DNA from: an uncultured virus (IMG/VR IMGVR_UViG_3300037963_003836)
Taxonomy: Duplodnaviria > Heunggongvirae > Uroviricota > Caudoviricetes
Virus record (IMG/VR): IMGVR_UViG_3300037963_003836
Direction: 5' to 3' (one strand)
DNA: 64,000 nucleotides
Part shown: positions 1 through 63,240 of the stretch, piece by piece
Layout: each line of letters opens with the position of its first letter
Numbering within the stretch: the first letter of the stretch is position 1
The notes under the pieces: model-generated
Told to the model about the DNA's origin: nothing
The model's database searches: none
The model's input: only the letters and a program-made list of their open reading frames with translations
Translations under genes and position numbers: made by a program

Positions 1-1734
1 TGTAGGAAAGTCTTGTTTTTTATATTCTCTAAGTAAAGTATTTAGTTCTCTAATCTCTTCACTTGCGAGATGATATAAATCTTCGAATATATCCATATCC
101 AAAAACTGTGCTAATAATTCTTTTCTTTCCTTTTGAGATTTTTCTATAAACCCACTGTTATTAGATTGTGTTGACATTGCTGTTAAAACAAAATCTTCAT
201 ATGTTCCAATGTAGTTTCTAATTATTGCGTTTGTCTCTCTACGTTGTTCACCATTCAATGATTCTTTTTGTCCATCAATCATTCTATAGAAATCAACGTC
301 AACTTTTACAGTTCCTCTTTTTGGACTTTTCTTTGCTTTTCTTTCTATGAAATATTCAACACCATTTAATTCGAATTCAAACTTACAATCAAAATTCATT
401 TTAGAGTAATTCATTACATCTTCTGCTCTGATTGTTCTTGAACACTTGTCAAACATACAAAATGATAATGCGTCCCATAAAGTTGACTTACCACTTGCGT
501 TTGGTGCAAAGATTCCATATGCACCTTTCATATTTGTAAAGTCAATTACATTGTTAGTTCCATATGAGAACATATTAGAAAACTCAAATCGTTTTGGAAT
601 CCACGTTGAGTTACTTACAATATTTGGTTTTCCAAGTTTATCATTTATATCTTTATTGATATTGGTAACTACACTTAGTTGTTCTTTTGTAAGGTGTTCT
701 GTTTCTTCTAAATATTCTTCGATAAGTTTATTTTGAAAACCTGTATCTCTTACATTTTGTAATACTATTGATTGATGTTCTACATCTCTTTTACGAGTTA
801 AAACTTTTTGTACAGTTAGTTCTTGTACTTGTGCTTGTTTTTTAATCTTTGCGATTAATCTATTAAGTTGTGAAGTCTTAGTATCTTTTACTCTTACCCT
901 AACTCTTGGTTTATTAGGCATATAATTGTCAGATACTATTTTACCATTTTCAATATCAACAGTCACATATCCATAATCATTGTGTATTGGAACAAATTCA
1001 CTTTTTAGATTTTTCATATCCCAAACTAAGATACCGTGAATAGGATATTTAGCTTCACCGTGATTTTGAACTATCAATGAGCCAGAATATTTGATATGTG
1101 ATTTACCCATTACCTCGTTGTTTGGTTTATGGATATCACCTAACAATACTAAATCATAATTTTCAAAGTGTGATACTTTTACATTTTGATTCTGTATTAC
1201 AAATCCGTGTTCAGTTTCAATGTTATCAACAGGACCGTGTAACATTGCAATTCGTCCATTGTTTTTCTTGTAGTCTGTAGCAGGTGGGAATCCTTCTGAC
1301 TTATCCCATATTGATTTGTGTACAAACGTGTAACCACCGATTCCAACTGCACCTGTATCTTTTACATAGTGTAAGTTTGGATGGTCTAATGCTTTTATGA
1401 TAGGACTAAGAGCGTCCAATCTTGAAGTATTGTTTAGATTTGCGTCGTGATTGCCAGGAATTACGATAGTTGGTAGTAAGTCTGATAACTTACATAAAAA
1501 TTCTTGAGTTAAATCAACAACCTCAGGTGACATATCAGTTTTTGCGTGTACGATATCACCTGCGATATAAATGATGTCATTTTCCCTCATTGTGGATAAG
1601 ATGTATCCATAAAGGTTGGAAAATACCTCACGGTATTCTTTGTGTCGTTGAAGGTTTCTGATATGCACATCTGCGATGTGATATATCTTTCCGATATCGG
1701 ACACACCGACATCGATATACTTTATTCTTCTCAT
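1..1734 (-). CDS. Fused Mre11/SbcD nuclease - Rad50/SbcC ATPase (C-terminus runs off the window); not in the ORF track
   Basis: Manual translation from ATG at 1734: HIADVH, AGDIVH, IPGNHD and LGDIH phosphoesterase motifs, then in the same frame FSNMFSYG and Walker A APNASGKST; no stop down to position 1. Confidence 0.92.
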   Translation of the reverse strand, partial: MRRIKYIDVGVSDIGKIYHIADVHIRNLQRHKEYREVFSNLYGYILSTMRENDIIYIAGDIVHAKTDMSPEVVDLTQEFLCKLSDLLPTIVIPGNHDANLNNTSRLDALSPIIKALDHPNLHYVKDTGAVGIGGYTFVHKSIWDKSEGFPPATDYKKNNGRIAMLHGPVDNIETEHGFVIQNQNVKVSHFENYDLVLLGDIHKPNNEVMGKSHIKYSGSLIVQNHGEAKYPIHGILVWDMKNLKSEFVPIHNDYGYVTVDIENGKIVSDNYMPNKPRVRVRVKDTKTSQLNRLIAKIKKQAQVQELTVQKVLTRKRDVEHQSIVLQNVRDTGFQNKLIEEYLEETEHLTKEQLSVVTNINKDINDKLGKPNIVSNSTWIPKRFEFSNMFSYGTNNVIDFTNMKGAYGIFAPNASGKSTLWDALSFCMFDKCSRTIRAEDVMNYSKMNFDCKFEFELNGVEYFIERKAKKSPKRGTVKVDVDFYRMIDGQKESLNGEQRRETNAIIRNYIGTYEDFVLTAMSTQSNNSGFIEKSQKERKELLAQFLDMDIFEDLYHLASEEIRELNTLLREYKKQDFPT

Positions 1735-2663
1735 ACGTTAAATAGTTGATACTCCATTAACTTTCTTAAATCAAGTGGTGGTGTATCATAAATTTTTTGG
1801 TTTATACGTTCATATCCCATTTCAGATGGGTCCTCATCACCTAAGTCTACCAAATGAGTCTGAATCCCGTAGGACATAAACTTCTTGGACAGACCTATTG
1901 CGTTAGATATAGCATCCGAATCTAATACAATATACAACTTTTTTACCGAATTTCCAATTATTTTCTTCTCTAATTTTGATTGTATACTTTTTCCAAACAA
2001 TGGAACTGCATTTCTTCGTATTGCTATTGCGTCAAATGCTCCTTCACATAAAACCAATGGTATATCCCAATTCACTAAAAGGTCAAACCCTACAATGTCT
2101 TTAGATACCTTTGGATTTTTGTGTTTGTATTTTGATTGATAGAATGACCTACCAACAAAAAAGTTTAGTTTTCCATCATCGTCATAAGATGGTATAATAA
2201 TTTTATCTTCATATTCTCCTGTTTCACAATATCCTATATTATATTTCACAATATCCTCAGGTCTAAGTCCACGTTTTAACAAATAGTTAAGAGCGTGTTT
2301 GTACTTAAACGAGTTTGATTTTTTGTAAAGTGGTTTAAATTCTTTTGGAAGTTCAACTTGATTTACCTGTATCTGATTATCGGAATGAACGTAACGGTTT
2401 ATTCTACTGAATATACTATTATACTCATCCCAAGTTTGTTTAGATACACGAAGTTTTTTAAAAAGGGTTTTTATTGTTCTACCCTTTTCGTCAGATATCC
2501 AACAATGCCATGGATTCTTTCCATCAGAAGTAATTCTAATATTTACTTCTAACTTAGGTTTATAGTGGTCTACAAACGGGGAATAAAAGGCATAATTATC
2601 ACCCGATGTTTTCTTGGATTTACCAAGAACAGACTCCAATAATTCAAGTAATCTATCTTCCAT
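1731..2663 (-). CDS. DNA primase (DnaG/T4 gp61-like, TOPRIM)
   Basis: IIIPSY..GKLNFFVGR, LCEGAFDAI, YIVLDSDA and EDPSEM TOPRIM motifs. Confidence 0.88.
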   Translation of the reverse strand: MEDRLLELLESVLGKSKKTSGDNYAFYSPFVDHYKPKLEVNIRITSDGKNPWHCWISDEKGRTIKTLFKKLRVSKQTWDEYNSIFSRINRYVHSDNQIQVNQVELPKEFKPLYKKSNSFKYKHALNYLLKRGLRPEDIVKYNIGYCETGEYEDKIIIPSYDDDGKLNFFVGRSFYQSKYKHKNPKVSKDIVGFDLLVNWDIPLVLCEGAFDAIAIRRNAVPLFGKSIQSKLEKKIIGNSVKKLYIVLDSDAISNAIGLSKKFMSYGIQTHLVDLGDEDPSEMGYERINQKIYDTPPLDLRKLMEYQLFNV

Positions 2664-2692
2664 TTAGTATAAACTTACACTAATATACAAAA

Positions 2693-3127
2693 TTATTTTG
2701 AATAATCAAAGAAATTTTCCTTTTGTTTTTCCTCAATCCATTCTTGGGGTATTTCTTTTTTAGCCCATTTGAAACCATTCTTCTCACACCATTGAGCGTA
2801 AGTAGTTTTAGAACCTTTGTATATTTTACCGTTTGGGGACTGTAAAACAAATCGTAAATCCATCTCAGGATTCTGTTCTCTGATGAGTAAATGTTTCTTT
2901 CTGTCCTCGGGTAAAAACCAACCCTTTGATTCAATGTAGATACCGTTTGGTAATTTGAAATCGGGTTTGTAAGTGTGGTGTGTTGCTGGTACTGTATATG
3001 ATACTTCGTGTTGTTCATATTCACCGTCAATTCCTTGTTGTTTGAGTTGTTCATCTATACGAGTTTCCAACCCACTTTTGTGTCCCTTCATTTTTTGGAT
3101 GTGGGACCAATTTCCTTTTTTATTCAT
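2693..3127 (-). CDS. Phage endonuclease I-like Holliday junction resolvase
   Basis: SGLE, YKPDF, IESKG, DRKKH and TTYAQWC motifs typical of the T7 endonuclease I family. Confidence 0.88.
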   Translation of the reverse strand: MNKKGNWSHIQKMKGHKSGLETRIDEQLKQQGIDGEYEQHEVSYTVPATHHTYKPDFKLPNGIYIESKGWFLPEDRKKHLLIREQNPEMDLRFVLQSPNGKIYKGSKTTYAQWCEKNGFKWAKKEIPQEWIEEKQKENFFDYSK

Positions 3128-4873: not shown

Positions 4874-6217
4874 TTAGAAATCTAATTTAACCTTGACCAA
4901 TACTTCGTTTTGGAATGATTTCAAAATTGGTTTAGAAAGTTTAGCGATTGCGAGTAATTCATTATCATTGTTATATAACCCAACACTTGTAATATAAGTT
5001 TTTGGGTCACCAACGAAAGTTGATTGATTCAATCTACCCTCTGAACCTGAAATATAAGTCGGGTTGTTACTAAAGTTATATTCACCATTCTTAGCTCTAA
5101 CAAAGTAGAAAGTTGATTTAACTTCTTCTTCGTTTCTTGCTTGGAATCCGTTTGATGTACTATCAACTGCTGAACCACTAATTGCTTCAAACAATCTATT
5201 ATGGTTTTGATTATCTGCTACAGTTCTTACAGTTCCTAATGATGATGAATCATCAAGTGCCGCTGCACCTAATATGATTATACCATGTTGTGGATAAACT
5301 TCACCAAATATTTCTGTTGAGTTTTGAATACCACCTGTAAGAGAACCTGATACTACATTGTATTTAGTTTGTCTTGCGTTACCTGCTTGGTTAGTGTCAC
5401 CACTATCATCAATTAGTCTTAATAGTTTTTTACCACCTGAACCTGAGATACACAATTCCCAATTGCCAGGGTCTAATCTATCTTTTAGTCTAGCTCTGTT
5501 GATTGCGATTGCGTAAATATCATCTTGGTTTCTATCTTGCCATTTGAAGAATTTTTGGTTAGACGGTAACAAGACTTGTTGCATTTGTGAGTATATTGCA
5601 GATGAAGGTGAATCTTCATTTGTTCCTGCCGAACCACTACCTGCGTAGTGTCCGTATGCTACTGAGAACTGAGGTTCATTTGTAGATACTGATGGAAGTC
5701 CGTTATATACTTCATAGTAATATGATTTTTGAGTATTTGATAAGAACGATGATGTGTGGAATACAGTTAGTTCACCACTTCCACCTGACCATAGTCCTCT
5801 TGTTACTCTCTTAGTACCACCTTCTACTACATCTTCAGTAGTAAAGGCAGTATAAACTTTTCCACTACCATAATCATATGCTCCTGCTGGAACGATTGGA
5901 GTGTCATTTGCTGCGACATCATCATTTAGTATGACATCAATTGGTGATACGTTTACTCCACTACTTGGTCCTTGACCTGAGGTTGGACTCAAAATAGATG
6001 GTCTTGGTGCTACCTGTGGAGTAACTGATACGTTTGATGCTCCACCACCATTTTGAAGGTTTTGTGATATTACGTTTTGTCCACCATTTCTTGGACCATT
6101 AAGGAACGGCATACCATTAAATCCATTAATGCCAGGAAATCCACCTGGCGGTGAATTGAATCCACCGTCAAAGTATGAGTTAGGTCCACCGAATCCGAAG
6201 TTGTTTAAAAATGCCAT
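4874..6217 (-). CDS. Virion structural (baseplate/tail) protein, paralog of 3130-4857
   Basis: C-terminal TYITSVGLYNNDNELLAIAKLSKP..KVKLDF; Gly/Pro/Asn-rich N-terminus. Confidence 0.7.
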   Translation of the reverse strand: MAFLNNFGFGGPNSYFDGGFNSPPGGFPGINGFNGMPFLNGPRNGGQNVISQNLQNGGGASNVSVTPQVAPRPSILSPTSGQGPSSGVNVSPIDVILNDDVAANDTPIVPAGAYDYGSGKVYTAFTTEDVVEGGTKRVTRGLWSGGSGELTVFHTSSFLSNTQKSYYYEVYNGLPSVSTNEPQFSVAYGHYAGSGSAGTNEDSPSSAIYSQMQQVLLPSNQKFFKWQDRNQDDIYAIAINRARLKDRLDPGNWELCISGSGGKKLLRLIDDSGDTNQAGNARQTKYNVVSGSLTGGIQNSTEIFGEVYPQHGIIILGAAALDDSSSLGTVRTVADNQNHNRLFEAISGSAVDSTSNGFQARNEEEVKSTFYFVRAKNGEYNFSNNPTYISGSEGRLNQSTFVGDPKTYITSVGLYNNDNELLAIAKLSKPILKSFQNEVLVKVKLDF

Positions 6218-6228
6218 AATTTATCTCC

Positions 6229-6870
6229 TTATTCGTTTACCTTAGGTGTTACCGTTACATCTAACTCTGCTCTACCACCTGTTTCATTACCAATAATGAT
6301 AATTCTTGTATTGGTTGTTTGGTTTGTTGGTAGATTGTTTGTTGGAGTGAATATAAATGAATTCAATCCTGTTACTGCTAATGCTTGATTAGTAGCATAT
6401 GAATTGATATTAATAATAGGTGAAGTTGTTCCTGGCACTCCTGCGTTACCACTGATTGAACCTACATCACTATTAAGTAATATTGCTGTATATCCTAAAT
6501 TTTCATTACCACCATTCTTAGTAGTTACGTTTATAGTACTTGCTGTTCCTTCTTCTGCTGAAGAGATAGAAGTTACCGATAGTTCTATAAATGGTAATTT
6601 TACCGTTGATTTCGGTAATGATAATAATTTGTATTTCATTAAATATGAATCGTCAGTAATCGCCTCCAAGATTGGCATATTTTCAATAACGATTCCATAG
6701 TAGTCACTACCTAACGAGTGAGCAGGATTCCAAAGGTCGTAATCGACCTCATCATCCGCTAATGCGAATTGGGTAATTGAAAATTTGTCTCTACCTTCCG
6801 CGAGTAATTCTCTTCCCCTCTTGGTAAGGATAGCGTCTACTGTTACAGATGAATTGTCTAAAAATCCCAT
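6229..6870 (-). CDS. Virion structural (baseplate) protein
   Basis: LTKRGRELLA..ITQFALADDEVDY N-terminus; late-type TATTTAT motif upstream. Confidence 0.65.
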   Translation of the reverse strand: MGFLDNSSVTVDAILTKRGRELLAEGRDKFSITQFALADDEVDYDLWNPAHSLGSDYYGIVIENMPILEAITDDSYLMKYKLLSLPKSTVKLPFIELSVTSISSAEEGTASTINVTTKNGGNENLGYTAILLNSDVGSISGNAGVPGTTSPIININSYATNQALAVTGLNSFIFTPTNNLPTNQTTNTRIIIIGNETGGRAELDVTVTPKVNE

Positions 6871-6934: not shown

Positions 6935-9900
6935 TTAACCACCTCTATTCGAAAATAATCCACCTGACCTACGATTTCTTTGTTGTTGAAAAATATCGTC
7001 TAACGGTCCATTTGTAGTAGCTGCTGCTCCAAATGTTGAGTTATTATTTACAGGTGGTGGTGGTCCATATCCAAACGACACATTAGTCGTTGGTGGTGGT
7101 GTAGAACTTATTCTTGGTGCACCACCATTTCTATAAGCTCTTGCCGCTTGTTTTCTCGCTACATTCTCAACTGCTCTTGATGTAGCGTTTACGTTTAACG
7201 TAACATTCTTTTGTGCAATTCCAACAGACGGAATAAAACTAAATGATACTTTTGTATCATCGCCTGGTATTTTCCCAATAGGTCTTTTTCTTCTTTTAGG
7301 TAATAATGGTAGTGCTGGTGGATTTCTAAATAAATCGTCTTCAATTGCTTTATCTATTGCTTTTGATGTTGATTTACTTATAGTTTCCACTGTATCAATG
7401 TGTTTTTTAACTGATACTAAATCCTCAGATTCCATAACATTTATTACCTTTGTTGCTCCCTTTGAATCAAGTTCAACTTCTTTTGTAGTACTTACTACGA
7501 TATCAGTATCACTAACCTGAGTTACTTCTATTACAGGACTGTTGTCAGGAGTATCCGCTGAATTTGCTGTTAAAGATGTACTTGATATTTTACATCCTAA
7601 ATAGAATAAGTTATTTAGATTACCTGTCAATCTATCATCTTGAACTCTTGCAAAATGGAATGACGCGGAACTTGCGAACTCAGGACCTTTTGATGCACTT
7701 ATTTCGTTTGTGTAAAAATATCTTGGTTCCAATGCTGTTCTTGAAAGTCTTGCGTCTAATATAGTAGAACCTGTTGGTGAGTATTCCCAATATGGATTTG
7801 TATCTGTAAAGTAATCACCTGAAGAACTAAGTCTTTGGATGTCGGTGTATTTGTAAACAGACGGTTTAAATACATCTTTGGTTATACTACTTGTGTAAGT
7901 TAAGTAAGAACCTGATATTATACTTAACGTTGTTACTCCACTACTCTCATATTGATTTTGTGTGAATGAGATTCCTTGTGGTCTTAAATAATTGTTTCTC
8001 TCAAAAATATGTGGTTCAACTAAAATACCTTTATGCCAATCAGCTCTTGCTGGAACTAACTGTTTCATTGAATCAAAGATAGACATATCATATCTTGATA
8101 ACATATCTAATTGAATCTGAAGTGCGGTTCTTCCTGTATATTTTTGGAAATAGTTTCTTGCTCTAAAATCTAATAAATCATATCCGTCATTATTTCTAAC
8201 ATCAGTATCACCAACCAAATCACCTGCGTCAAAGTAACCTTCAGACGCGTAGATATCAAAGTTGACTGTATCTGTTGTAGAGAAATAAGTTCCTAATAAA
8301 TTAGAATCAAGAGGCGCTTCATCGTATTGACTTTTTTCATTACTAACATCAAATTGTAATGGACCTCTTAATGATGAAGATTCTATTCTTACTTTCTTAT
8401 TTGTTAAGTTTAGTGCTCCAACAGATGGAATAGAAACAAACTGAGTATCTACTTCACCTGATAATCTTGATGCGTCTGCTTGTCCAAATCTATCAAAAGA
8501 CGCAGATAATATAAGACCCGTTACTGATGAGGTAAACTGTTGATTAGGATGTCTTGATGATATAGAACCACTAATGTTATTATATGTACTATCAGGGAAA
8601 ATTCTATATAGAAGATTCTCATATGATGTGTCGATATCTAAATCAGTTGTATTATCATCAGAATAATATGCGTCAGTATTTGCTGCGTGACCAAGTATGA
8701 CTTCGTTTGATAACTGTTTTTTGTAGTATCTTATTTCTTGGATACTTGATGTAGTATTTCCCGCATTAGTAAATGGTATAGAAATAGACGCACTTCTACC
8801 TGTTGGTGATGTTGGGTTCCAAATACTATCTATGCTACTATCATCCCAAGACGCAGTTGGATTTGCTAATGTGAATCCCCAATCGTCAACCCATGCTGAG
8901 TTAAGTGTATATCCACCTGACCCCGATGATATTGCTACTATAACATTTCTTTCTTGTTTGTAAGGAACATATGGTGTTGATGCTAACGCTCCACCACCAA
9001 CATAATTAACAACCCATCTTGCTTTTCCCGTTACTTGGTTATACTCCCATTTTAAATCATAGGTGTCGGAAATATTATGTCTCATGATTGTGTGATTACC
9101 CTGTGGTAGTTTTGCTATTATTTCAATAGTCTTTGGTCTATGACCATTAATTTTATCCCATGGGTTCTCTGAACGACATGCTCCGTCTAATTGTAGTTTG
9201 TAGATATATCTTTCGTGTTCGTATATCTCTTTAGTATCTTTTATTCTTGGTCCACCGTACTCTCTAATCTTTAAGAATGCACTTGGAACACCATAAGAAG
9301 ATATCAATGTTTTAAATGAACGTGCAGTACCTTTACTTTTGTATATTCCTGGCACGTTATTTAATAATCTTCTCCAAGTTTCGTGAACAATCTCTTTTGT
9401 TGGTTTAGAATATAGAGAACCTGATTGTATTGGATTACCTGTTTGGTCAACTCCGAATTCGTATTTCCATAATGAAGTATCGGAGTATCCATTAAATAGT
9501 TTCCAACCAAATGAGTTTGTAATAACCTCAATCAAATCCTGTGCCATACCATCTTTAGGATGTTCTTCTCTATCATTGATTTGAGTAATTTCTTTTATGT
9601 AGTTGTAGAATATATCAAAATGTTGACCTAACATTTTTACAAACTCAACATACTCTTCGTTCTTTTCATCAAACGCTAAATTAGCAGGAATCATTTCTGT
9701 TAACTTAGTATCATTTAATGCGTCATATGCTTTTGCTGTCTCAATTGTATTATTAAACCAACTTGTACCGTTTGATGATGTCAAGTCATATAACGTATGT
9801 GGGTTCTTTAATTCTTTTGGATATGGGTCTATTACAAACTGTGACGAACTAAAGTGTGTATATAAAGATGACTCATGATTATAGTACATCCAATATTCAA

Positions 9901-11401
9901 AGTCATCAAACCCACCAATCAACGCGTCTCTTCTACTTGTTGATGATGAAATGTTTGTTATTGCTTCAGAACCACTTACTCCTGTTAAAGTTTGGATTCT
10001 CGTGTTGTATCCTTCTACAAGTTGTAGTTTGTATTTAAAGTTTCTAACTCTTTCTTCTGCTGATGAAAAGTGAATAAAGTTTTTTAAGTCAGAATAATCT
10101 ATATTTAGTGTTACGTTTCCAAGTGAACCACTGAAAAACTTATCTACGATTTGTTGTCTTGTTGGTAGACCTGCGTCTAATAAAGAATCCCAAGATTCGA
10201 ACTCACCTGCTGCTCCTTTGTTGTCACCCAAATCAATGTTGAAGTTTGGATTTGAAAAGAAAGGAATCATATTAGGGTCTTCGAGTCCCTCGTATATGAT
10301 TATATTATCTATATACGGTTTTACTAATTGTAGTGAGATATCAAGTGTATCATTAACATTTATAGTTGATGGTAATTCTTGACTTAGTTTAACAATTACT
10401 TCATTTACAGTATTTAGATTAAGGTCAAATGCATTATATCGTACATCTAATGCGTTTATGTTTAATGACGAGTAAGTTGGTTGAATAAATGCGTCTCTCG
10501 TCGCTTGGTCTACATCAGATGGTAATTCTTCTGGCGATAAATACGTTTCATTTTTTCTTAACCAACTTAAAGATGTGTCTGCGTTTCTGACAAGTTTAAA
10601 TCTATCAAAAATACCTGTTAATCTATATTTTGTTATAGGGAAGAAAGTGTTACCACCTTGAACAGTGTCATCTAAGTCAACTTCTGCAAATGTAACAAAG
10701 TCTGTTGTATTGTCGTCACCAAATCCTGTTTCTAATGGTGTTTGTGTTACGGGGACAAATATTGTATTTCTATTAGAGTCATTAACACTCGTGTCACCAA
10801 CAGGAAATGGTAGTGACGCGGAAAAGAGTCCACCACGTTGTCCCATAAACTGTGCATTAACAATTGGATATAAATTGTTTGCTCCAAAGTTTAATTGTGC
10901 TGGTAAAAATGTATCATCACCTGAGAATGTGTTCCCCACAAGACCATTTGGTGTACTGTATAGTTGGTATAGGTTTGATAGACCGTTTATGTTTGAGGAT
11001 TGGATTTTTACTTCTTTTCTGTTTGGTGAAATCTCTGTTATTTTCAATCCTGATGCTGCTTGGTGTAAAAAGTTATACACCATTTTATATGTACCACTTT
11101 TGTAACCACCATCTCTTATGTCTTGACCTGGCCTTATGAAAAGAGTTTTATTACCAACGTCACCGACTGTGTTAAATGGTAAACCGGCTCTACCACCCAA
11201 GTACGCTCCTTGTGGTGTATAGTAATGAACTTCTAAGTTTGGTGTAGTAAATGATGGAATACCTGTGATGTCTTCGTCACTTAAAACAGGGTATGTTGCT
11301 CCCTCTGCTATTAGTGCAACATCTTCAGGTGAAAACACCTCTCCGAAGATAGGTTGTTTACCATTTACTTCATCTTCATTAAAAAATCTATCTAAAGGCA
11401 T
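6935..11401 (-). CDS. Large baseplate wedge protein (possibly gp7-like)
   Basis: 1488 aa; FVKMLGQHFD and KSKGTARS..LISSYG segments resemble wedge proteins; close to gp6-like gene. Confidence 0.55.
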   Translation of the reverse strand: MPLDRFFNEDEVNGKQPIFGEVFSPEDVALIAEGATYPVLSDEDITGIPSFTTPNLEVHYYTPQGAYLGGRAGLPFNTVGDVGNKTLFIRPGQDIRDGGYKSGTYKMVYNFLHQAASGLKITEISPNRKEVKIQSSNINGLSNLYQLYSTPNGLVGNTFSGDDTFLPAQLNFGANNLYPIVNAQFMGQRGGLFSASLPFPVGDTSVNDSNRNTIFVPVTQTPLETGFGDDNTTDFVTFAEVDLDDTVQGGNTFFPITKYRLTGIFDRFKLVRNADTSLSWLRKNETYLSPEELPSDVDQATRDAFIQPTYSSLNINALDVRYNAFDLNLNTVNEVIVKLSQELPSTINVNDTLDISLQLVKPYIDNIIIYEGLEDPNMIPFFSNPNFNIDLGDNKGAAGEFESWDSLLDAGLPTRQQIVDKFFSGSLGNVTLNIDYSDLKNFIHFSSAEERVRNFKYKLQLVEGYNTRIQTLTGVSGSEAITNISSSTSRRDALIGGFDDFEYWMYYNHESSLYTHFSSSQFVIDPYPKELKNPHTLYDLTSSNGTSWFNNTIETAKAYDALNDTKLTEMIPANLAFDEKNEEYVEFVKMLGQHFDIFYNYIKEITQINDREEHPKDGMAQDLIEVITNSFGWKLFNGYSDTSLWKYEFGVDQTGNPIQSGSLYSKPTKEIVHETWRRLLNNVPGIYKSKGTARSFKTLISSYGVPSAFLKIREYGGPRIKDTKEIYEHERYIYKLQLDGACRSENPWDKINGHRPKTIEIIAKLPQGNHTIMRHNISDTYDLKWEYNQVTGKARWVVNYVGGGALASTPYVPYKQERNVIVAISSGSGGYTLNSAWVDDWGFTLANPTASWDDSSIDSIWNPTSPTGRSASISIPFTNAGNTTSSIQEIRYYKKQLSNEVILGHAANTDAYYSDDNTTDLDIDTSYENLLYRIFPDSTYNNISGSISSRHPNQQFTSSVTGLILSASFDRFGQADASRLSGEVDTQFVSIPSVGALNLTNKKVRIESSSLRGPLQFDVSNEKSQYDEAPLDSNLLGTYFSTTDTVNFDIYASEGYFDAGDLVGDTDVRNNDGYDLLDFRARNYFQKYTGRTALQIQLDMLSRYDMSIFDSMKQLVPARADWHKGILVEPHIFERNNYLRPQGISFTQNQYESSGVTTLSIISGSYLTYTSSITKDVFKPSVYKYTDIQRLSSSGDYFTDTNPYWEYSPTGSTILDARLSRTALEPRYFYTNEISASKGPEFASSASFHFARVQDDRLTGNLNNLFYLGCKISSTSLTANSADTPDNSPVIEVTQVSDTDIVVSTTKEVELDSKGATKVINVMESEDLVSVKKHIDTVETISKSTSKAIDKAIEDDLFRNPPALPLLPKRRKRPIGKIPGDDTKVSFSFIPSVGIAQKNVTLNVNATSRAVENVARKQAARAYRNGGAPRISSTPPPTTNVSFGYGPPPPVNNNSTFGAAATTNGPLDDIFQQQRNRRSGGLFSNRGG

Positions 11402-35030: not shown

Positions 35031-35042
35031 AACATTTATTTG

Positions 35043-43574: not shown

Positions 43575-43673
43575 CGGGTATTCTATTACCGTGTTCATCA
43601 ACCTCGGGTGCGATATGCATTTCATATACAATCCACAACCATATAACGACTAATGTTCCTATTACTACCTTTA

Positions 43674-48449: not shown

Positions 48450-48860
48450 TTACTCCTGCTCTTTTTTGGTTAAAAATAAATCGTAACTACCCTTTATTAT
48501 ATATAGTGTTTTTTTACTTAATGGAGTGAACTGATATTTGTTTATATCATTTAACGTAATCCATTTCACACTCTGATGTGCATTGAGTTTAGGTTTACCA
48601 CTCTTATATTTGATTATATATGGATAAAACTCTACTCCGTCTTCTTCTCTTTCGGGTATTGAATAATATACATTTATGTCTATATCCAACTCCTCTTTCC
48701 ATTCACGAATTATCGCGTCATACGGAGTTTCACCTTCCTCAATCTTACCACCTGGCAGTTCCCACAAATCAGGACAAACCGAATCCGTGGATAATCTTTT
48801 TCCAATTAGAACAGTATCTTCGTCAACTAATGCCCCAACTACTATCTTCATCTTGTACAT
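48450..48860 (-). CDS. Nudix hydrolase (MutT-like)
   Basis: WELPGGKIEEGETPYDAIIREWKEELDI Nudix box. Confidence 0.9.
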   Translation of the reverse strand: MYKMKIVVGALVDEDTVLIGKRLSTDSVCPDLWELPGGKIEEGETPYDAIIREWKEELDIDINVYYSIPEREEDGVEFYPYIIKYKSGKPKLNAHQSVKWITLNDINKYQFTPLSKKTLYIIKGSYDLFLTKKEQE

Positions 48861-49736: not shown

Positions 49737-50342
49737 TCATCTCAAATCTTTTTTCATGTCTCTCTTGACCACTTCCAAATACTTTTTTCGTTTCTTGTCT
49801 GATACAAACGGGACTGACCAAAATTGTTTTGTTTTTAACCATCTACTGATTTTCCATCCAAATACAAATGTAAATACACCCAATACCAATCTTAACTTAA
49901 CTGAATTTAAGTATAATGTCACAACGGGTAACATTGGTGCTCCATGAGTTATATATGTCCTAACTTTTTTATCACTTAAGTGTGGTTGTGGATATGCGTA
50001 TAGTTTCGTGATATTTTTGAAATTATATGCGAATCCAGGCGTTAAGACCTCGTCAAAGAATATTTCCATTCTTGGAGTTAGTCTGAACCACCAAACAGGT
50101 GATATGAAATAAATATGAGTTGACCAAGTTACCATTTTTTTGTATGATTCAATTAAATCCGTTCTTGGTCTTCTGAAACTATCTCTATATAAGTCTATGA
50201 TTTTAAAGTCTTCTGATTTCTTGTCCACTTCGTCAACAATGGTTTTGAATATCCCATTGTAACAAAATGATTTAGTATCGGGGTGTCCTATTACTATTAG
50301 TATTTTCTTTTCTTTCTTCACTCTTCGTTTACGATTTTCCAA
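49737..50342 (-). CDS. Flavodoxin-like NAD(P)H:quinone oxidoreductase
   Basis: ILIVIGHP..SF, IDLY and SPVWW..P..FFDEVL.PGFAY. Confidence 0.85.
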   Translation of the reverse strand: MENRKRRVKKEKKILIVIGHPDTKSFCYNGIFKTIVDEVDKKSEDFKIIDLYRDSFRRPRTDLIESYKKMVTWSTHIYFISPVWWFRLTPRMEIFFDEVLTPGFAYNFKNITKLYAYPQPHLSDKKVRTYITHGAPMLPVVTLYLNSVKLRLVLGVFTFVFGWKISRWLKTKQFWSVPFVSDKKRKKYLEVVKRDMKKDLR

Positions 50343-50483: not shown

Positions 50484-50966
50484 TTAGTCATCCATTTCTA
50501 ATTTACGTTCAAAGTACTGAGCAGAGTCCTGAATCTCAGGATTCTGTTTGATTGTTTGCATTGCAATCATATCTTTCATTTTAGTTGTTGACCAACCATG
50601 TGCTCTTGTTGTGAACACAATCTTTGGTGGTAAGTCATCACCTGTAAATGATTTTCCGATATAATCCTCACCTAAGATTCTTATATCGGGTTTGAAAAAC
50701 TTAATCAATTCGTAAAGTTCTTCTTCCGTCTGATAAACATAAACCTCATCAATATATTGGATTGCCATCAATGTACGATATCTTTCGTACAATGGAATCA
50801 CGGGTTTATATTTTGACTTCCTATGAAGTGACGGGTCTCTTTGTAAAAACACTATGAAATGGTCACAGTGTCTTTTCGCCTCTTGAAAGGTGTATATATA
50901 GCCAGGATGAATCAAATCAAAATTACCTGCTGTACATCCTACTATTTTACTCTTTTTCTTTCCCAC
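50484..50966 (-). CDS. Glycerol-3-phosphate cytidylyltransferase-like protein
   Basis: AGNFDLIHPGY, ER, YIDEV, LGEDY and WSTT. Confidence 0.82.
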   Translation of the reverse strand: MGKKKSKIVGCTAGNFDLIHPGYIYTFQEAKRHCDHFIVFLQRDPSLHRKSKYKPVIPLYERYRTLMAIQYIDEVYVYQTEEELYELIKFFKPDIRILGEDYIGKSFTGDDLPPKIVFTTRAHGWSTTKMKDMIAMQTIKQNPEIQDSAQYFERKLEMDD

Positions 50967-51597: not shown

Positions 51598-53195
<1,598 letters not shown>

Positions 53196-53804
53196 TTATT
53201 TACCTTTTTTTTGTTTTAATTTTGCTTGTTTTATTTGTTCTGCTCTCCACTGTGGTTGTTTACCTCTGATATTACCTCTTTGATTATGAAAACAATTGTA
53301 ACACAAAAATCTAATGTTTTCTCTTTTGTGATTTGTCCAATCGTCATCAATATGGTCAAGAATCAAAGGAATAGAACCATCTGTCAATCTTTTCTCTTTG
53401 TATCCACAACTGTGACATTCATGTGGAAATTCTAACTCAGGTTTATGTGAGTTGTTAATTAATCTTTTCTTCAATAAAAAAACAGGATACTTAGGATGTT
53501 TACCATCTAAAATGTCATTCAACGCGTATTTACCCTGAGTTACATTATATGGTTTCTTTACACCCTTACCTCTCTGATTCTTATGTAAGTCCCAAAGAGT
53601 TTTTCCTGTTTCTTCGTCTATGTAAGATTTTGAATACTTTTGATATGTGGTTAGTGATACATTAAGGAATCTAGCTGCACCTGAATTTGACTTCGAGTTC
53701 TTCATCGCATAACGAATCTGACTTTCAGTTAAGTTCAAGGGAGTTCTACCTTTCCCTAAAACATATCCATTTGGTAATTTAAAACCTTTTTTCATATCCT
53801 TCAT
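53196..53804 (-). CDS. HNH endonuclease
   Basis: CHSCG..LILDHIDDD..N...NIRFLCYNCF. Confidence 0.8.
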   Translation of the reverse strand: MKDMKKGFKLPNGYVLGKGRTPLNLTESQIRYAMKNSKSNSGAARFLNVSLTTYQKYSKSYIDEETGKTLWDLHKNQRGKGVKKPYNVTQGKYALNDILDGKHPKYPVFLLKKRLINNSHKPELEFPHECHSCGYKEKRLTDGSIPLILDHIDDDWTNHKRENIRFLCYNCFHNQRGNIRGKQPQWRAEQIKQAKLKQKKGK

Positions 53805-55336: not shown

Positions 55337-55690
55337 CTATAGATTTACGTCATTAAAACCACCATTTTTCTGAACAATTATACCTTCTGCTCTTACTTCA
55401 TTAGGTTTTTTATCACTATTGTTGTTGATTAGGATTCTTTCGGCTCTACCGATTCCCATCACTAATTGATGGAATGGTATTCCTAAGATGTCCATTTCTT
55501 GAATTGTCTCGTGTCTCAAAGACTCAGGTCTTGCAGTAGTTAATACGATGTGGTATCCTTTTTTGAACCAACCAACCATTTTATCTACAACTCCTGGCAA
55601 TGCAACACTGTTAAACGGGTCAAGGTCTTCAAAGTTCACTTGGTGAACCAAAGTCCCATCGATGTCTGTGAAAATAGTTTTATTTGTCAT
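55337..55690 (-). CDS. HAD-family hydrolase
   Basis: DIDGTL and LTTAR. Confidence 0.78.
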   Translation of the reverse strand: MTNKTIFTDIDGTLVHQVNFEDLDPFNSVALPGVVDKMVGWFKKGYHIVLTTARPESLRHETIQEMDILGIPFHQLVMGIGRAERILINNNSDKKPNEVRAEGIIVQKNGGFNDVNL

Positions 55691-55762: not shown

Positions 55763-56329
55763 TTAATTTTTTCTTAATCTAAATCTTGGATTCAAATACT
55801 TTTCATACAACATACTTAGTTGTTCTTCTGATAAGTTCAAATCTAATGACCGTATTGTGTCTTTCGATTTATTAAAATCCGTTGTGTAAATGTCATTATA
55901 CCAAACCAATCTTGATGTAACAGTTTTTTTATGGAAATCTATTAACCACTTGTAATTGTTAAAAACATACTCCAAAGATTTTTTGGTTATATTTTCAGTT
56001 CCTTTGTACTCATTCAAATATCCGTGAACTATTGCGTTCTGATGACTTAATACAGTATCTCTCAAATTATCCCTCATCAATATTATAGTTCTATCAAACT
56101 TACTATAGTTTTTTTCAATCCAATCAGGACTGTGACCTGATAATGTTTTAAATATAACATTCTCACCAATCTCATCACCTTTTTGAAATGGTGGGTTTGT
56201 TTTGTAGTAACTTTTCCATAATTCTCTATTAAATGGTTCTAACACCATTTTATGATTCATAACGTCTGAAAGTCCGTAATGAAGAGAAGTACTACCACAT
56301 CTTCCGTGTCCTGTTAATAATATTTTCAT
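55763..56329 (-). CDS. Sulfotransferase-like protein
   Basis: GHGRCGSTSL (5'-PSB-like loop), EPF and LMRDN....VLS (3'-PB-like). Confidence 0.6.
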   Translation of the reverse strand: MKILLTGHGRCGSTSLHYGLSDVMNHKMVLEPFNRELWKSYYKTNPPFQKGDEIGENVIFKTLSGHSPDWIEKNYSKFDRTIILMRDNLRDTVLSHQNAIVHGYLNEYKGTENITKKSLEYVFNNYKWLIDFHKKTVTSRLVWYNDIYTTDFNKSKDTIRSLDLNLSEEQLSMLYEKYLNPRFRLRKN

Positions 56330-59806: not shown

Positions 59807-60481
59807 TTAAATTTTTCTGTGTTTAAATTGTGGATTTGATATCTCATTGGGTGGTTCCCACTGATAATGTTTTTCATCTTTCATGTATCCAAAGTTTATG
59901 TAGTCATCAAGAAATCTATCATAACATACTTGTCTGAGGTGTTCTTCATCGAATGGAATCGGTGGTGTATAAGTTTTACCAACAGTTGGTACCACAACAT
60001 CTTCAGGGATAAACCAAAGTTTTTTTAAAGATACTTCAAGATTTTCCGCTCTAATTAGAAAATCTATTTGTTTTGATGTATTATTTATTAGATTCCAAAG
60101 TCCCCAACCATTTATCCAATCCTGTGACATATTTTGTAAACATTCAATTGGTCCATTTTTTGGGTCTATCATTTCGTGAAGTTCACCACCATATCCATAC
60201 TTCCAATAACTTAACCACCTATAATATGGATGTCTAATACTTGCAATATGCATATAATCTTTACCTGCTAATTCAGGCCAATTGTTTACATGAGTAAAAT
60301 CAGATGTATGTTCATCAGAGGGCCAATCAGGATTCAAATTACAATACTTTCTAAAAACATCTTTTACCGACCTTGATGCTACTTTAGCAGGTGCGGTCCA
60401 AACGAATTTATATTTGTGACTTATATTTGCACCTCTTTTGAGTGGGTCTATCATAGAGTAATGTGATGAGAAGTTAACCAA
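59807..60481 (-). CDS. Sulfotransferase family 2-like protein
   Basis: KVASRS, IRHPY.RWLSYW, IRAENL and D..NFGY. Confidence 0.7.
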   Translation of the reverse strand: MVNFSSHYSMIDPLKRGANISHKYKFVWTAPAKVASRSVKDVFRKYCNLNPDWPSDEHTSDFTHVNNWPELAGKDYMHIASIRHPYYRWLSYWKYGYGGELHEMIDPKNGPIECLQNMSQDWINGWGLWNLINNTSKQIDFLIRAENLEVSLKKLWFIPEDVVVPTVGKTYTPPIPFDEEHLRQVCYDRFLDDYINFGYMKDEKHYQWEPPNEISNPQFKHRKI

Positions 60482-60984
60482 GTTGTAAATGTATATCGTA
60501 CACCCGATGTTACGGTATGTGCCTCGTGTTTTATATCTGAATCAAATATTATGACGTTTCCTCTTGTTGTATTCATAACAGTTTGTTCAGTCCCGTGATA
60601 CAGTGTTAATCCCCCACCCTCAAAATCACTTGGGTTTGAAAGATTAATAATTAGAGTCTTTAATCTATCTGAGTATAGTCTTTTGGTTTTATCAACGTGT
60701 TTTTTAAAATAGTTACCTGTTTCGTACTTATTGATTCTTGCTGTACTTAGTAGACCTTGAATGTTCCACTTTCCTATTTTATTTAGTAACATCGTCTTTA
60801 ATGAATCAGAAAGTTCATACTTACCTTCAGATGCTTTTCTATGTGAATCATCTGAGTATCCGTAGTTGATTTCAGTACCCTGTCCTTTTTGGACTAACGT
60901 TGCTGAATTCCATTCAGTTACACCATCTATTAGACTTTGACATTCACTATCTGTAAATAAAACCTCTTGAACTATTCTATCCAT
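60451..60984 (-). CDS. 2OG-Fe(II) oxygenase (prolyl-4-hydroxylase-like)
   Basis: HVD, FEGG.L and HEA..VTSGVRY. Confidence 0.85.
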   Translation of the reverse strand: MDRIVQEVLFTDSECQSLIDGVTEWNSATLVQKGQGTEINYGYSDDSHRKASEGKYELSDSLKTMLLNKIGKWNIQGLLSTARINKYETGNYFKKHVDKTKRLYSDRLKTLIINLSNPSDFEGGGLTLYHGTEQTVMNTTRGNVIIFDSDIKHEAHTVTSGVRYTFTTWLTSHHITL

Positions 60985-61568
60985 TATTTCTCCGTATTAA
61001 AAAAGAATGTTTGGAACAACCTTCCATCATATTTATCTTGACCAAAATAATCTAATGATTGATGAAAGAAATCACCTCTATAAATTATCAGTCTATTATA
61101 TATATTCGCAAATTTATCTACAAGTTCCCATTTTGTATAATCTTGTGAATCTTTATATATTTTATCTAATAACTCACGGTCTGTTTCACCATTTTCTAAT
61201 CGAGGACATTCTATTAATCCTGTAGGTTTGTGTTTAAAAATACCTGTTCCCGAACTGAGTGGTGCATTTGGTGTTAAAAAACAAACACCTGCCCATCTTG
61301 TTGTTTGGTCACAGTGAATCCAACTTCTATCTCTTGATGTTGTAAATTGGTACGAACCTGTATATTCTTCGTCACCCCAAAATATAACATTACCCCATCT
61401 TGGTGAGATAACATCATTAATTACTTGTTTTACTGAATCGTTTAAAAATGATTTGGTTCGAGGGCCTGGATAGTTTCCTCGTACACTGAAATCTTGTTCT
61501 AATGCAAACTGTCTTACTTCATCGACATTACTATAGAACTCATCTATGATAAATGCGTTTACTCTCAT
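60984..61568 (-). CDS. 2OG-Fe(II) oxygenase-like protein (DUF6445-like)
   Basis: IIDEFY..D.VR..AL, IHCD, YNRLIIY...FH and RLFQ.FF. Confidence 0.7.
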   Translation of the reverse strand: MRVNAFIIDEFYSNVDEVRQFALEQDFSVRGNYPGPRTKSFLNDSVKQVINDVISPRWGNVIFWGDEEYTGSYQFTTSRDRSWIHCDQTTRWAGVCFLTPNAPLSSGTGIFKHKPTGLIECPRLENGETDRELLDKIYKDSQDYTKWELVDKFANIYNRLIIYRGDFFHQSLDYFGQDKYDGRLFQTFFFNTEK

Positions 61569-61737
61569 AACTACTTTCTAAATCTAAATCGTTCTAAATC
61601 TTCTCGATTGATTCCAATGTACTCTTGGAGTCGCTCCTAAGAACTTTTTACCTGCTACTCTGTCGTTGAAATCGTTACGGACTTGATTTAGTTGTGTATT
61701 TCCGTTGTCTTGATTTTTAATGTTGCTCATTTACGTT

Positions 61738-62652
61738 TTACATATACTTTGTTATACTATCAGGAGCGTTATTTTTCACCCAATTGAAAAGTTTTTCCTT
61801 CCAAACTTTCTCAGGTAATATACTCCCACCTTCTTTCTTCACGGGTAGAGATAAAAATCCTTTTGCAATTCCTTCAACCTCGTTTCCGTCTTTGTCTTTA
61901 TATTTGACTGTATGTTTTGGATTGTTTAGAATTACGTCTACTCTACCGTTTACACCCTTTGGCATTGCTTTTGTTATCAATCCCCAAACAGTGTTTGCTG
62001 CACCTTCGTGAGTTTTTAATAAAATATCCTCAGGTACCATTCTCTCTCTTTGTTTGTTGTTTTCCATTGCAGTTACGAAGTTAGTAAGAATCCACGTTAA
62101 GTGAACATTTTTAGATTGGTATCCTGCCTTCTTTAACATAGGAACTACCTTCGTAATATCTGAAACATCTTTTGCTGTAATATCAAACATAATATTAGGA
62201 AGTGTCTCAGGATTATCTTTACCTACAAATAGTTTTTCTAATGAACTATCTTTGATACCCATTGCTTTTACTAACTGATGTAATGCTCTAACGTGGTTAG
62301 GTTGTTTCAGTTGTAAGTTTCTTAATTGAAATCCTTGTGATTGAATACTTCTAATATTTTCTATTTCTTTTGCTGGTATGTTTTTACCAAACTTCTTTAT
62401 GATTCCATCTATATCGATTTTACCCATTCTATTTAGAATCTGTAATTGTTTTTTCATTTTATCGACATCACGAACCTTGAACATTTCTTTATCTAAAAAG
62501 TGATTTGATGCGAATCCTTTACCTGAACCTGCTCCACCTGCTAAGAATACTACCTGACCGTATGGTTTTCTGTTATTGTAAACCATTAACTTTTCGTCAA
62601 GTTGTTCTTCGTTAATTACTTCTAATATGAAATCTTTTATATTCCAACTCAT
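61738..62652 (-). CDS. P-loop kinase (zeta-toxin/AAA_33-like fold)
   Basis: FLAGGAGSGKG, MFDIT and N..RER.VP. Confidence 0.7.
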   Translation of the reverse strand: MSWNIKDFILEVINEEQLDEKLMVYNNRKPYGQVVFLAGGAGSGKGFASNHFLDKEMFKVRDVDKMKKQLQILNRMGKIDIDGIIKKFGKNIPAKEIENIRSIQSQGFQLRNLQLKQPNHVRALHQLVKAMGIKDSSLEKLFVGKDNPETLPNIMFDITAKDVSDITKVVPMLKKAGYQSKNVHLTWILTNFVTAMENNKQRERMVPEDILLKTHEGAANTVWGLITKAMPKGVNGRVDVILNNPKHTVKYKDKDGNEVEGIAKGFLSLPVKKEGGSILPEKVWKEKLFNWVKNNAPDSITKYM

Positions 62653-62831
62653 TTTTTAACTCCGTTGTACGGAAACATCCTATTTAATTTTTCACGTCTT
62701 TTGTCACATCCGCAATCATCTGCTCCTGCGACTTCTGCGATTTTCTCAGCCAACCTATCTAATTTAGTTGCTGATGTGATTTTAGCTATGGTGTCACCTA
62801 AACCTTTTGATGGTATGTTAGTCTTCTTCAT
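62649..62831 (-). CDS. Small Cys-containing phage protein
   Basis: GLGDTI.K.T...CGC..RREKLN..FPY. Confidence 0.6.
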   Translation of the reverse strand: MKKTNIPSKGLGDTIAKITSATKLDRLAEKIAEVAGADDCGCDKRREKLNRMFPYNGVKK

Positions 62832-63069
62832 AGTAATCTACTTCCACATTAAATCCGTTTTTAATAAATAGTTCATAATAATGGTCAACGATTAATTCAT
62901 CACCTGTAAATATATTACAACGACCTGTTGTATGAACTATATTTGCTATTGACTGACCCTGAGTAGTTGGATATGACATATATTTTTTCAAAACATTTAT
63001 GACATCCATAAAACTATTCACGTTATCATTTAATAAATATAAGGTTTTTTTTCTTTCCCCGTATGTCAT
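62818..63069 (-). CDS. clpS: ClpS-like adaptor protein
   Basis: LLNDNVNSF..VI.VL...A..VH..G. Confidence 0.65.
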   Translation of the reverse strand: MTYGERKKTLYLLNDNVNSFMDVINVLKKYMSYPTTQGQSIANIVHTTGRCNIFTGDELIVDHYYELFIKNGFNVEVDYYEED

Positions 63070-63240
63070 AAATCGTAATAAATTACTTCTTCTATATCGT
63101 ACTTGTTTTTAAACTTTGTGATGTAAATTGGAACCTCGACTTCGTGACAAATCTCTGCTGCTACTTTGGTCCCACCTGGCTCATCTGTTACTACATATAA
63201 AATTTTGTTACCTAATTCTTTAGTACTCGATAATAAATTA

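Follow-up and report, generated by a model that had tools for sequence, protein, structure and literature searches.

Modification of one short motif can block cleavage at a restriction site that overlaps it, as Dam and Dcm methylation do over XbaI or ClaI sites, and GpC is the target of the methylase M.CviPI. In viruses, the closest described systems pair a C5-cytosine methyltransferase (C5-MT) with a TET oxygenase. The phage C5-MTs paired with TET act mostly at GC[C/T], some at GC[C/T/G], and not at GCA (Burke et al. 2021, PMC8256090). Clusters of C5-MT, TET (5mYOX) and glycosyltransferase (GT) genes are known from marine viral contigs, where the mark is sparse and post-replicative and the GTs lie near the DNA polymerase and clamp genes; their authors see little chance that a GpC mark this sparse shields a genome from endonucleases in general (bioRxiv 10.1101/2023.12.21.572611). 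Among the methylated motifs of marine viral metagenome-assembled genomes, RGCY occurs most often, as N4-methylcytosine in the Myoviridae-like ones (PMC8919816). Other phage systems are arabinosylated 5-hydroxycytosine in the DNA of RB69, DLP3 and HY126 (PMC13326640), the Mom protein of Mu, which marks adenine in S-A-S (PMC13219725), and the replacement of all G with 7-deazaguanine in Flavobacterium phage immuto (bioRxiv 10.1101/2023.04.13.536721). We analyzed a 64-kb stretch of DNA (64,000 nucleotides, referred to as the window) from the uncultured marine virus IMGVR_UViG_3300037963_003836 (Caudoviricetes), in which every CCWGG site overlaps a GpC step. As in classical restriction-site avoidance, short palindromes are purged (GATC, TTATAA, CTAG). 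Unlike classical avoidance, the pattern is conditional: a word survives where its outer C is overlapped by a GpC, and almost nowhere else. Our literature searches found no published description of such a flank rule among the records that they listed.

An exact scan of the window returned 30 CCWGG sites, the same 30 that the preliminary description had found by eye, with none missed and none extra. Eleven read GCCWGG, with the G on the 5′ side: 1454–1458 (ttgCCAGGaat), 5466–5470 (ttgCCAGGgtc), 6132–6136 (atgCCAGGaaa), 7263–7267 (tcgCCTGGtat), 20847–20851 (ccgCCAGGaaa), 23655–23659 (gggCCAGGatg), 33710–33714 (gcgCCAGGttg), 34897–34901 (tagCCAGGgtc), 35072–35076 (ttgCCAGGatg), 50902–50906 (tagCCAGGatg) and 61465–61469 (gggCCTGGata). 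The other nineteen read CCWGGC, with the C on the 3′ side: 6144–6148 (ccaCCTGGcgg), 6431–6435 (gttCCTGGcac), 9348–9352 (attCCTGGcac), 11127–11131 (tgaCCTGGcct), 13492–13496 (tttCCTGGcac), 13813–13817 (actCCTGGcat), 16382–16386 (ataCCTGGcga), 21406–21410 (ccaCCTGGcga), 24295–24299 (ttaCCAGGcgc), 25373–25377 (aatCCAGGcac), 30345–30349 (aaaCCAGGcca), 31704–31708 (taaCCAGGcgc), 35851–35855 (tttCCTGGcaa), 42235–42239 (ttaCCTGGctc), 48751–48755 (ccaCCTGGcag), 50035–50039 (aatCCAGGcgt), 52357–52361 (aatCCAGGcgc), 55593–55597 (actCCTGGcaa) and 63175–63179 (ccaCCTGGctc). No site has both flanks and none is unflanked. Shuffling of synonymous codons across the window (300 replicates) produced a mean of 39.9 CCWGG sites, 32.0 of them unflanked (minimum 21), compared to 30 and 0 in the actual sequence. 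At the null flanked share of 0.20, the probability of 30 flanked sites in 30 is ~1e-21. The exact count of unflanked CCWGG is thus nowhere near the frequency of the null.

The reading frame of these sites also bears out the preliminary description. Open reading frames (ORFs), called with an in-house greedy ORF picker, contain 29 Pro-Gly dipeptides in the window, all of them written CCW-GGN and each accounting for one CCWGG. The thirtieth site, at 35072, is located within a tRNA-Glu gene (35042–35114, minus strand; tRNA call). The flank is provided by rare codons, as had been claimed: the codon preceding Pro ends in G at 18 of the 29 junctions, and Gly is encoded by GGC at the remaining 11, ten of which follow I, F, D, H or Y, residues that have no G-ending codon. 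GGC accounts for 23 of the 1331 Gly codons of the window, and the background rates of the flanks are low, with G before CC in 126 of 2691 instances and C after GG in 72 of 1499. The accompanying statement that Pro-Gly cannot avoid CCNGG held only in part. The spelling CCS-GGN escapes CCWGG and is used by Microcystis phage Mel-JY01 at 170 of 170 Pro-Gly junctions; it is not open to the phage of the window, because CCGG is restricted there as well.

The nearest record to the window is G001, an IMG/VR sequence of 180,769 bp that has 98% of the window's words in common; the window is the reverse complement of its positions 96,904–160,903. The phage is present in public sequencing runs from nine studies. 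G001 is a T4-like myovirus and encodes gp23, gp20, terminase, sheath, gp32, UvsX, PolB, RNR, ribosomal protein S21 and collagen-repeat fibres. The two ends of its contig match at 66% identity over 1.5 kb; in the relatives G004 and G005 the sequence runs through this junction without a break, inside the contig. The overlap of the ends, together with this internal junction, indicates that the gene content of G001 is essentially complete. The duplicated ends (1–1524 and 178965–180512) are copies of one DUF6734 gene region (GT-A-like, with a DXD motif), and they are probably two strain variants that were joined by the assembler. The flank rule extends over the entire record, with 93 of 95 CCWGG sites flanked, compared to 99.3 unflanked sites in the shuffle null (minimum 80, 200 replicates); the nulls leave 80–85% of sites unflanked. 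One of the two CCWGG exceptions and the single CTAG exception are located in the last 1.7 kb, within the 66%-identical duplicate of the contig start.

The rule is not limited to CCWGG. All seven CTAG sites of the window are flanked, five by a 3′ C (5490–5493, agtCTAGctc; 13510–13513, aaaCTAGctg; 19677–19680, tttCTAGcta; 36933–36936, gctCTAGcca, within the tRNA-Ala gene at 36881–36955; 53671–53674, aatCTAGctg) and two by a 5′ G (41345–41348, acgCTAGgat; 45072–45075, gagCTAGaac). Both CCGG sites have a 3′ C: one is at 11184–11187 (aaaCCGGctc), and the other (46833) is contained in CCCGG at 46832–46836, the only CCSGG of the window. The four CGWCG sites are flanked likewise, by a 5′ G at 1443–1447 (tgCGTCGtg) and by a 3′ C at 10499–10503 (ctCGTCGct), 17130–17134 (atCGACGcc) and 29158–29162 (ctCGTCGca). 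Among the 47 CCAG/CTGG words, none is unshielded (CCAGG-C being counted as shielded). In G001 the rule is obeyed by 16 of 17 CTAG, 13 of 13 CCGG, 4 of 4 CCSGG and 7 of 7 CGWCG sites, and only 2 of 179 CCAG words are unshielded. Rescue is conferred only by G at −1 or C at +1; one side is enough, and no site has both. Sites with the opposite arrangement (a C at −1 or a G at +1) are not rescued.

Short palindromes are far below the codon-aware null in G001. CTAG, which can be shielded, is present 17 times, against ~333 expected. Words that cannot overlap a GpC are essentially erased: GATC (0 against 485 expected), TTATAA (1 against 104), ACATGT (0 against 32) and TACGTA (0 against 32), with GATC and TTATAA both at 0 in the window. 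CATG is mildly low in G001 and shows no flank enrichment (46 of 280 flanked). CCTCC/GGAGG is nearly absent from both strands, CCTC in G001 being followed by C once, by A 199 times and by T 282 times; it is one more avoided word that the GpC rule does not cover. The restricted words are overlapped by 60 of the 954 GpC steps of the window.

To place the rule among relatives, we first sampled 79 loci at the baseplate gene and afterwards nine contigs in full. In strains at least 95% identical, 71 of 71 CCWGG sites are flanked (ten overlapping loci, which are not independent). More distant clades put other words under the same flank rule. In G005, CTAG is flanked at 61 of 64 sites and CTNAG at 62 of 62, while CCWGG is left free (58 of 66 unflanked). 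CTAG is flanked at 27 of 27 sites in G006, along with 8 of 8 CCATGG, at 94 of 107 in G004 and at 17 of 20 in G008. Control relatives that lack the rule leave CTAG unflanked at 108 of 185 sites (G007) and at 297 of 422 (immuto). At orthologous CCWGG sites, the flank is kept in G003 at 33 of 33 and is missing in G004 at 28 of 38, through single synonymous differences. Because different clades put different words under one flank rule, the recoding must be specific to each lineage, and the factor that rescues a site must act whatever the word.

The trait was not found in any cultured phage. The closest by major capsid protein, Mel-JY01 (57% identical) and immuto (54%), are both without it. Mel-JY01 has no CTAG at all, although ~214 GC-flanked copies would be expected, and the absence of GC-flanked CTAG from a phage without the trait indicates that the GC flank is not protective in itself. 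This phage (PP395634.1) also has no GATC and shows no GpC avoidance, and it encodes a C5-methylase at 80521–81189; with its uniform CCS-GGN spelling, it is a different solution to the same problem. The T9SS (type IX secretion system) sorting-domain protein of G005 hints at a host among the Bacteroidota. The GroEL of the window has ~50% identity to many Proteobacteria, and is thus uninformative on the host.

The genomes that keep the rule avoid GpC elsewhere. The odds ratio of GpC in the window is 0.51. In G001, NGC codons are 10–25 times rarer relative to NGT than are other NNC codons relative to NNT (TGC 18:409, CGC 7:171, AGC 24:1085 and GGC 70:3039), and G|C across codon boundaries is seen 234 times, against 766 in the null. 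The depletion is alike in reverse-complement contexts, hence it acts on DNA and not on mRNA, and a cause at the level of RNA is excluded. Avoidance of GC-centred palindromes alone was also rejected as an explanation, as all 16 boundary contexts are depleted except for the flanks before Pro codons; the in-frame A|GCT (0.62) and T|GCA (0.64) are mildly low only. The NGC/NGT index ranges from 0.05 to 0.26 in all eight rule-keeping genomes and from 0.59 to 2.07 in all three others.

The divergence between G001 and G003 shows how the deficit is maintained. Third positions of NGY codons differ at 12 of 1420 sites, compared to 984 of 7760 for NHY, and R|C positions differ at 13 of 1199, compared to 646 of 8266. 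A hypermutable 5-methylcytosine (5mC) would raise the rate of change at NGY; the rate is 15-fold lower, so new GpC steps are removed by selection. The avoidance of GpC is maintained by purifying selection and not by hypermutable 5mC, and deamination of 5mC as the source of the deficit is ruled out by this test. Plain 5mC at GpC, one form of the modification that the preliminary description had placed there, is accordingly disfavoured, since the deficit is held by selection with no excess of C-to-T turnover.

Both the flank rule and the avoidance of GpC would be accounted for by a GpC-linked mark that acts independently of the word, a reading to which we give somewhat better than even credence. 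The mark would be carried by a base of GpC, most simply the C of GC[C/T/G], and would block nucleases whose recognition word begins with the marked C. Since a GpC step is its own reverse complement, a single G flank (or a C opposite) would place one marked base in the word, on one strand, and the sequence pattern shows that a single flank suffices. Words that never overlap a GpC (GATC, TTATAA, ACATGT and TACGTA) would then have been deleted, along with the avoidable copies of C-initial words (CTAG, CCGG, CCWGG, CCAG and CGWCG). Unavoidable copies, mostly at Pro-Gly, would have been recoded with rare codons (NNG before Pro, GGC for Gly) so as to place exactly one GpC over each. Elsewhere GpC would be selected against, the mark being costly or its writer limiting; we surmise that superfluous GpC steps draw on a writer in short supply.

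A GpC factor is the most economical account because a single flank rule covers at least six words across different clades, in genomes where GpC is otherwise handled as a cost. In this footprint, words are rescued in the contexts GCC, GCT and GCG, which would match the GC[C/T] and GC[C/T/G] specificities of phage C5-MTs; no restricted word begins with CA, so GCA is outside the reach of the data. As in the overlap blocking of restriction sites, a mark for one short motif would shield another, overlapping site even when hemi-modified. What is otherwise a laboratory nuisance or tool would here be an evolved, genome-wide coding strategy. The proposal of the preliminary description, that a GpC factor rescues unavoidable restriction words, thus gained from the further words and clades, from the either-side logic of rescue, from the match in context with phage C5-MTs and from the co-occurrence with GpC avoidance; its canonical writer is not supported, and plain 5mC is disfavoured.

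The writer that we consider most likely, as a guess, is a non-canonical gene set next to the DNA polymerase of G001, at 60.7–69.1 kb and outside the window. A GT2 (60748–61836), a UDP-galactopyranose mutase (61817–62926) and a 2-oxoglutarate (2OG)-Fe(II) oxygenase (62920–63477) are encoded directly upstream of PolB, a gene for a 207-amino-acid class-I methyltransferase-like protein (66259–66882) is located between PolB and the clamp, and a gene for a 496-amino-acid protein (67636–69126) lies between the clamp and the clamp loader. The structural model of the latter (pLDDT 85.3) matched GT-B enzymes in Foldseek, including the glycosyltransferase of phage HY126, with E values of 1e-8 to 1e-9, and on this model we confidently assign it as a GT-B glycosyltransferase of the replication module. 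The family is homologous to a GT beside PolB in G005, which was found by local hmmsearch and hhalign (97%). An ORF in G012 is likewise homologous, and neither immuto nor Mel-JY01 gave a match. The methyltransferase-like and GT-B genes are found together beside PolB in rule-keeping contigs that lack Mom, with CTAG flanked at 6 of 6 sites in L337 and at 7 of 7 in L338–L341. Other rule-keeping relatives have Mom-family genes: three each in G005 and G013, and two each in G012, G014 and G015. The trio of G005, with its GT, flanks PolB (L103:18967-19578, L104:3926-4780 and L104:5327-6082), and the DpdA/Que cluster of immuto is beside its polymerase. The polymerase neighbourhood would thus be the home of DNA-modification genes in this phage group, which is a lead and not proof. 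G005 also has a homologue of DruA (Druantia) and a dCMP deaminase.

The module resembles known systems in part. Its GTs lie near the polymerase and clamp genes, as in the marine C5-MT/TET/GT clusters. The arabinosyl-5-hydroxycytosine pathway likewise belongs to T4-like phages and has its sugar-nucleotide and DNA GT genes in the gp45 (clamp) region; the clamp-side GT-B of G001 matches the HY126 GT in fold, and a gene for the supply of a furanose sugar, the UDP-galactopyranose mutase, is nearby. That pathway, however, replaces every C, by way of a thymidylate-synthase homologue that acts on dCMP, whereas the footprint described here demands a context-specific mark. The thymidylate-synthase homologue of the window (42039–42836, 301 bits to PF00303) keeps the Asn that we take to be typical of dUMP-specific enzymes, and neither a dCMP-type homologue nor a TET was recognised as the source of a hydroxylated acceptor for a sugar. 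Mom is also a context-specific, post-replicative base mark and has family members in the rule-keeping G005 and G012–G015; unlike the inferred mark, its S-A-S adenine does not fit the GpC rule, and the window's phage has no Mom gene. Immuto belongs to the same phage group and has its modification cluster beside the polymerase, but it shows neither site avoidance (GATC 513) nor the flank rule. That the clade marks GpC with enzymes of no known DNA-modifying family (GT-B, methyltransferase-like and 2OG oxygenase, with Mom in sister lineages) and recodes its genome around the mark is a tentative proposal, and we regard it as possible rather than probable.

A number of observations weigh against a phage-written GpC mark. 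The modification itself, the base that would carry it and its writer are all inferred from sequence. The mark by itself does not account for the cost behind GpC avoidance; ~3300 GpC steps persist in G001, among ~31,000 C per strand, so an enemy open to saturation, such as McrBC, would exert no selection on single sites, and the fast deamination of GpC that a 5mC mark would bring is the opposite of the conservation seen between G001 and G003. The preliminary description had expected a C5 or N4 cytosine methyltransferase, TET/JBP and an adjacent glycosyltransferase elsewhere in the genome. Pfam scans of the 214 ORFs of G001 and six-frame family searches disclosed no C5-MT, TET, N4/N6 methyltransferase or Dam-type enzyme. 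PF00145 (C5-MT) gave no six-frame match in G001 at E ≤ 10 and was also absent from 19 related viral contigs (five at least 95% complete), in searches in which control genomes gave matches; PF12851 (TET/JBP) was absent from the five records searched, G001 (none at E ≤ 10) and G005 among them. In both respects the clade differs from the marine C5-MT/TET clusters. G001 and G005 lack the N4/N6 families PF01555 and PF02086, and G001 lacks the Mom family (PF25680). Searches by tblastn with DpdA, FolE, QueD, QueE and QueF of immuto returned nothing in G001, G004–G006 and G008. The polymerase-side candidates have difficulties of their own. The GT-B family was not detected in G013–G015, by a weak profile search that also missed the G005 member. 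The methyltransferase-like protein, which is missing from G005, has the UbiG-type motif usual in methylases of small molecules, and no candidate gene is common to all rule-keeping genomes. We know of no precedent for a glycosyltransferase that marks unmodified C or G directly.

The scope of these searches is as follows. The partial contigs G003, G004, G006 and G008–G010 leave out the replication module and are uninformative on writer genes. PF01702 missed its positive control as a detector of DpdA and was not used as evidence. PF09198 (T4 beta-glucosyltransferase) gave one sub-threshold match, in G014 only. The (D/N/S)PP(Y/F) motif has two matches in G001, in a GT and in a sulfotransferase-like protein, and 2OG oxygenases of families other than TET/JBP are present in the genome (PF13640, PhyH and DUF6445).

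The main rival to a GpC-linked mark dispenses with modification. The nucleases that the clade faces, encoded by the host, by competing viruses or by the phages themselves, would require a base other than G before the first C of their word, for example as nickases that read the asymmetric five-base word HCTAG. Viral frequent cutters with such "not-N" positions do exist, as exemplified by Nt.CviPII (CCD). A G on either side would stop one nick and so prevent the double-strand break, which fits the either-side logic of the rule, as would a symmetric dimer; the phage has solitary nuclease genes that lack methylases, including a PvuII-like one, and the failure to find a writer would be as expected. 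Against this, at least six words (CTAG, CTNAG, CCWGG, CCGG with CCAG, CGWCG and CCATGG), in combinations that vary among clades, would all need the same rule at position −1. Such nucleases would also leave unexplained the avoidance of GpC in exactly the same genomes, and Mel-JY01 removes GC-flanked CTAG too. We consider this explanation unlikely, although no other rival stands above it.

The mark could also be laid down by a GpC- or GCY-specific methylase widespread in the host clade, so that new virions would carry marked DNA out of every cell, with the phage sequence adapted to it. The phage encodes no canonical writer, the trait follows phage clades that may track host clades, and a marine single-molecule real-time sequencing study attributes viral methylation mostly to the previous host (PMC9516812). 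The closest cultured relatives, however, infect Flavobacterium and Microcystis, while G005 carries its T9SS-sorting-domain protein; according to Burke et al. (PMC8256090), REBASE contained no GCY-specific C5-MT. The absence of any exception in 30 sites would demand a host mark that is always present, and the different modification modules beside the polymerase of each lineage suggest that the phages write their own marks. A host-written mark appears to us a little less likely still than nucleases that reject G.

A backbone mark is a more distant alternative. A phosphorothioate at the G-p-C link could block enzymes that cut at the edge of the word, and such enzymes exist for several of the words (^CCWGG, ^CCNGG and CGWCG^). 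One protected strand would prevent a double-strand cut, and the phage has APS (adenylylsulfate)-kinase-like and sulfotransferase genes. Known cutters of CTAG and CTNAG cleave within the word, however, the Pfam scans revealed no genes of the Dnd or Ssp type, and sulfotransferases yield sulfate esters, not phosphorothioates. We hold this to be very improbable. A canonical GpC C5-MT in another part of the genome, alone or accompanied by TET/JBP and a GT, would be consistent with the systems of Burke et al. (2021, PMC8256090), but the PF00145 and PF12851 six-frame searches and the Pfam scans reported above were negative, the gene content of G001 is essentially complete, and ten further contigs of the clade were negative as well; it has next to no likelihood. 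Least credible of all is an origin without nucleases, in which codon-pair preference at Pro-Gly during translation, or else mutation bias, produced the pattern as a side effect: 29 of the 30 CCWGG sites are in one frame at Pro-Gly, but the rule also holds in other frames and in tRNA genes, orthologous Pro-Gly junctions in G004 are unflanked at 28 of 38, the depletion is strand-symmetric, and the divergence shows selection and not mutation.

With regard to the GpC-linked mark and its writer, several other genes were considered and rejected. The window encodes a 208-amino-acid Methyltransf_24 protein (34404–35030, minus strand) with invariant H-D-C-N-P, labelled "DNA methyltransferase" in PHROGs. 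The family is common in phages without the trait: carriers such as L267, L271, L272, L277, L286 and L299 have a GpC index of at least 1 and mostly unflanked CTAG, and the only sequence match in the PDB is weak and O-methyltransferase-like. It comprises more than 1000 members of ~210 amino acids from marine viral contigs, with invariant H-D-C-N-P, W-N-G and D-x-G-x-G, and one fusion to a SET domain. An FkbM-family methyltransferase (39907–40479, minus strand) is present in G001, G003 and G005 only; as FkbM enzymes are typical of glycan methylation, it is probably a glycan methylase that is not tied to the rule. Phyletic profiling identified eight G001 genes that are common to all rule-keeping clades and absent from the three other genomes, encoding Hsp20, a DnaJ-like protein, a GT25, a sulfotransferase and four basic or structural proteins, none of them a plausible writer; an Atlas search with one of the eight gave no matches. 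The relatives G006 and G009 encode a 546-amino-acid N4/N6 DNA methylase with an SPPY motif that has no homologue in G001 (G006: L114:2409-4049). G006 also has its own S-adenosylmethionine (SAM) synthetase and a gene resembling a methylthioadenosine/S-adenosylhomocysteine nucleosidase (L113:438-2828), a sign of heavy methylation in that lineage.

The window has 34.4% G+C and nearly all of its genes on the minus strand. It encodes a fused Mre11/Rad50-like nuclease, primase, T7-type endonuclease I, baseplate and fibre proteins, ClpP/ClpS, GroEL/GroES, thymidylate synthase, three tRNAs, and many glycosyltransferases, 2OG oxygenases and sulfotransferases. A PvuII-like restriction endonuclease gene (PF09225, 27.5 bits; 43674–44141, minus strand; neighbouring gene at 43029–43631) has no adjacent methylase. 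CAGCTG is not avoided in G001 (9 sites, null 17), and the gene might be a phage nuclease of different specificity directed against host DNA. An APS-kinase-like gene and at least two sulfotransferase-like genes are located at 33301–33738, 55763–56329 and 59807–60481, and one sulfotransferase is among the eight genes shared only by the rule-keeping clades. The collagen-repeat fibre proteins of G001 are 1142 and 1236 amino acids long (L081:1473-8628 and L081:8680-12279). After their genes come those of a prolyl-hydroxylase-like 2OG oxygenase, a GT2 and a GT4/OGFOD2-like fusion, and a double GT25 is encoded in the window (37371–38846); the fibre genes, the oxygenase and the GTs look like a collagen-style system for hydroxylation and glycosylation of the fibres. 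A 1302-amino-acid protein of G001 (170537–174445; L088:10537-14445) combines a nicotinamide-mononucleotide (NMN)-adenylyltransferase-like domain with the head domain of CCA-adding enzymes and poly(A) polymerases, and is 62–89% conserved in relatives.

The footprint offers a testable answer to the question of how a sparse mark can protect a genome, namely recoding around the mark: the phage drops the words that no GpC can cover, brings the remaining ones beneath a GpC, and purges the GpC steps that it does not need. This one rule strongly shapes codon choice, GGC being 2% of Gly codons with half of the GGC at Pro-Gly. A flank footprint of this kind also serves to detect context-specific DNA modification in uncultured viruses by computation alone, with a detector that names the marked dinucleotide and lists the nuclease specificities that the virus faces. 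Here the detector responds in a phage that has no known family of writers, which points either to an undescribed set of enzymes or to the systematic use of a host mark. If a novel GpC mark is indeed spread across the clade, sequence alone would have revealed a new modification pathway, together with the logic by which a few percent of the cytosines can protect an entire genome.

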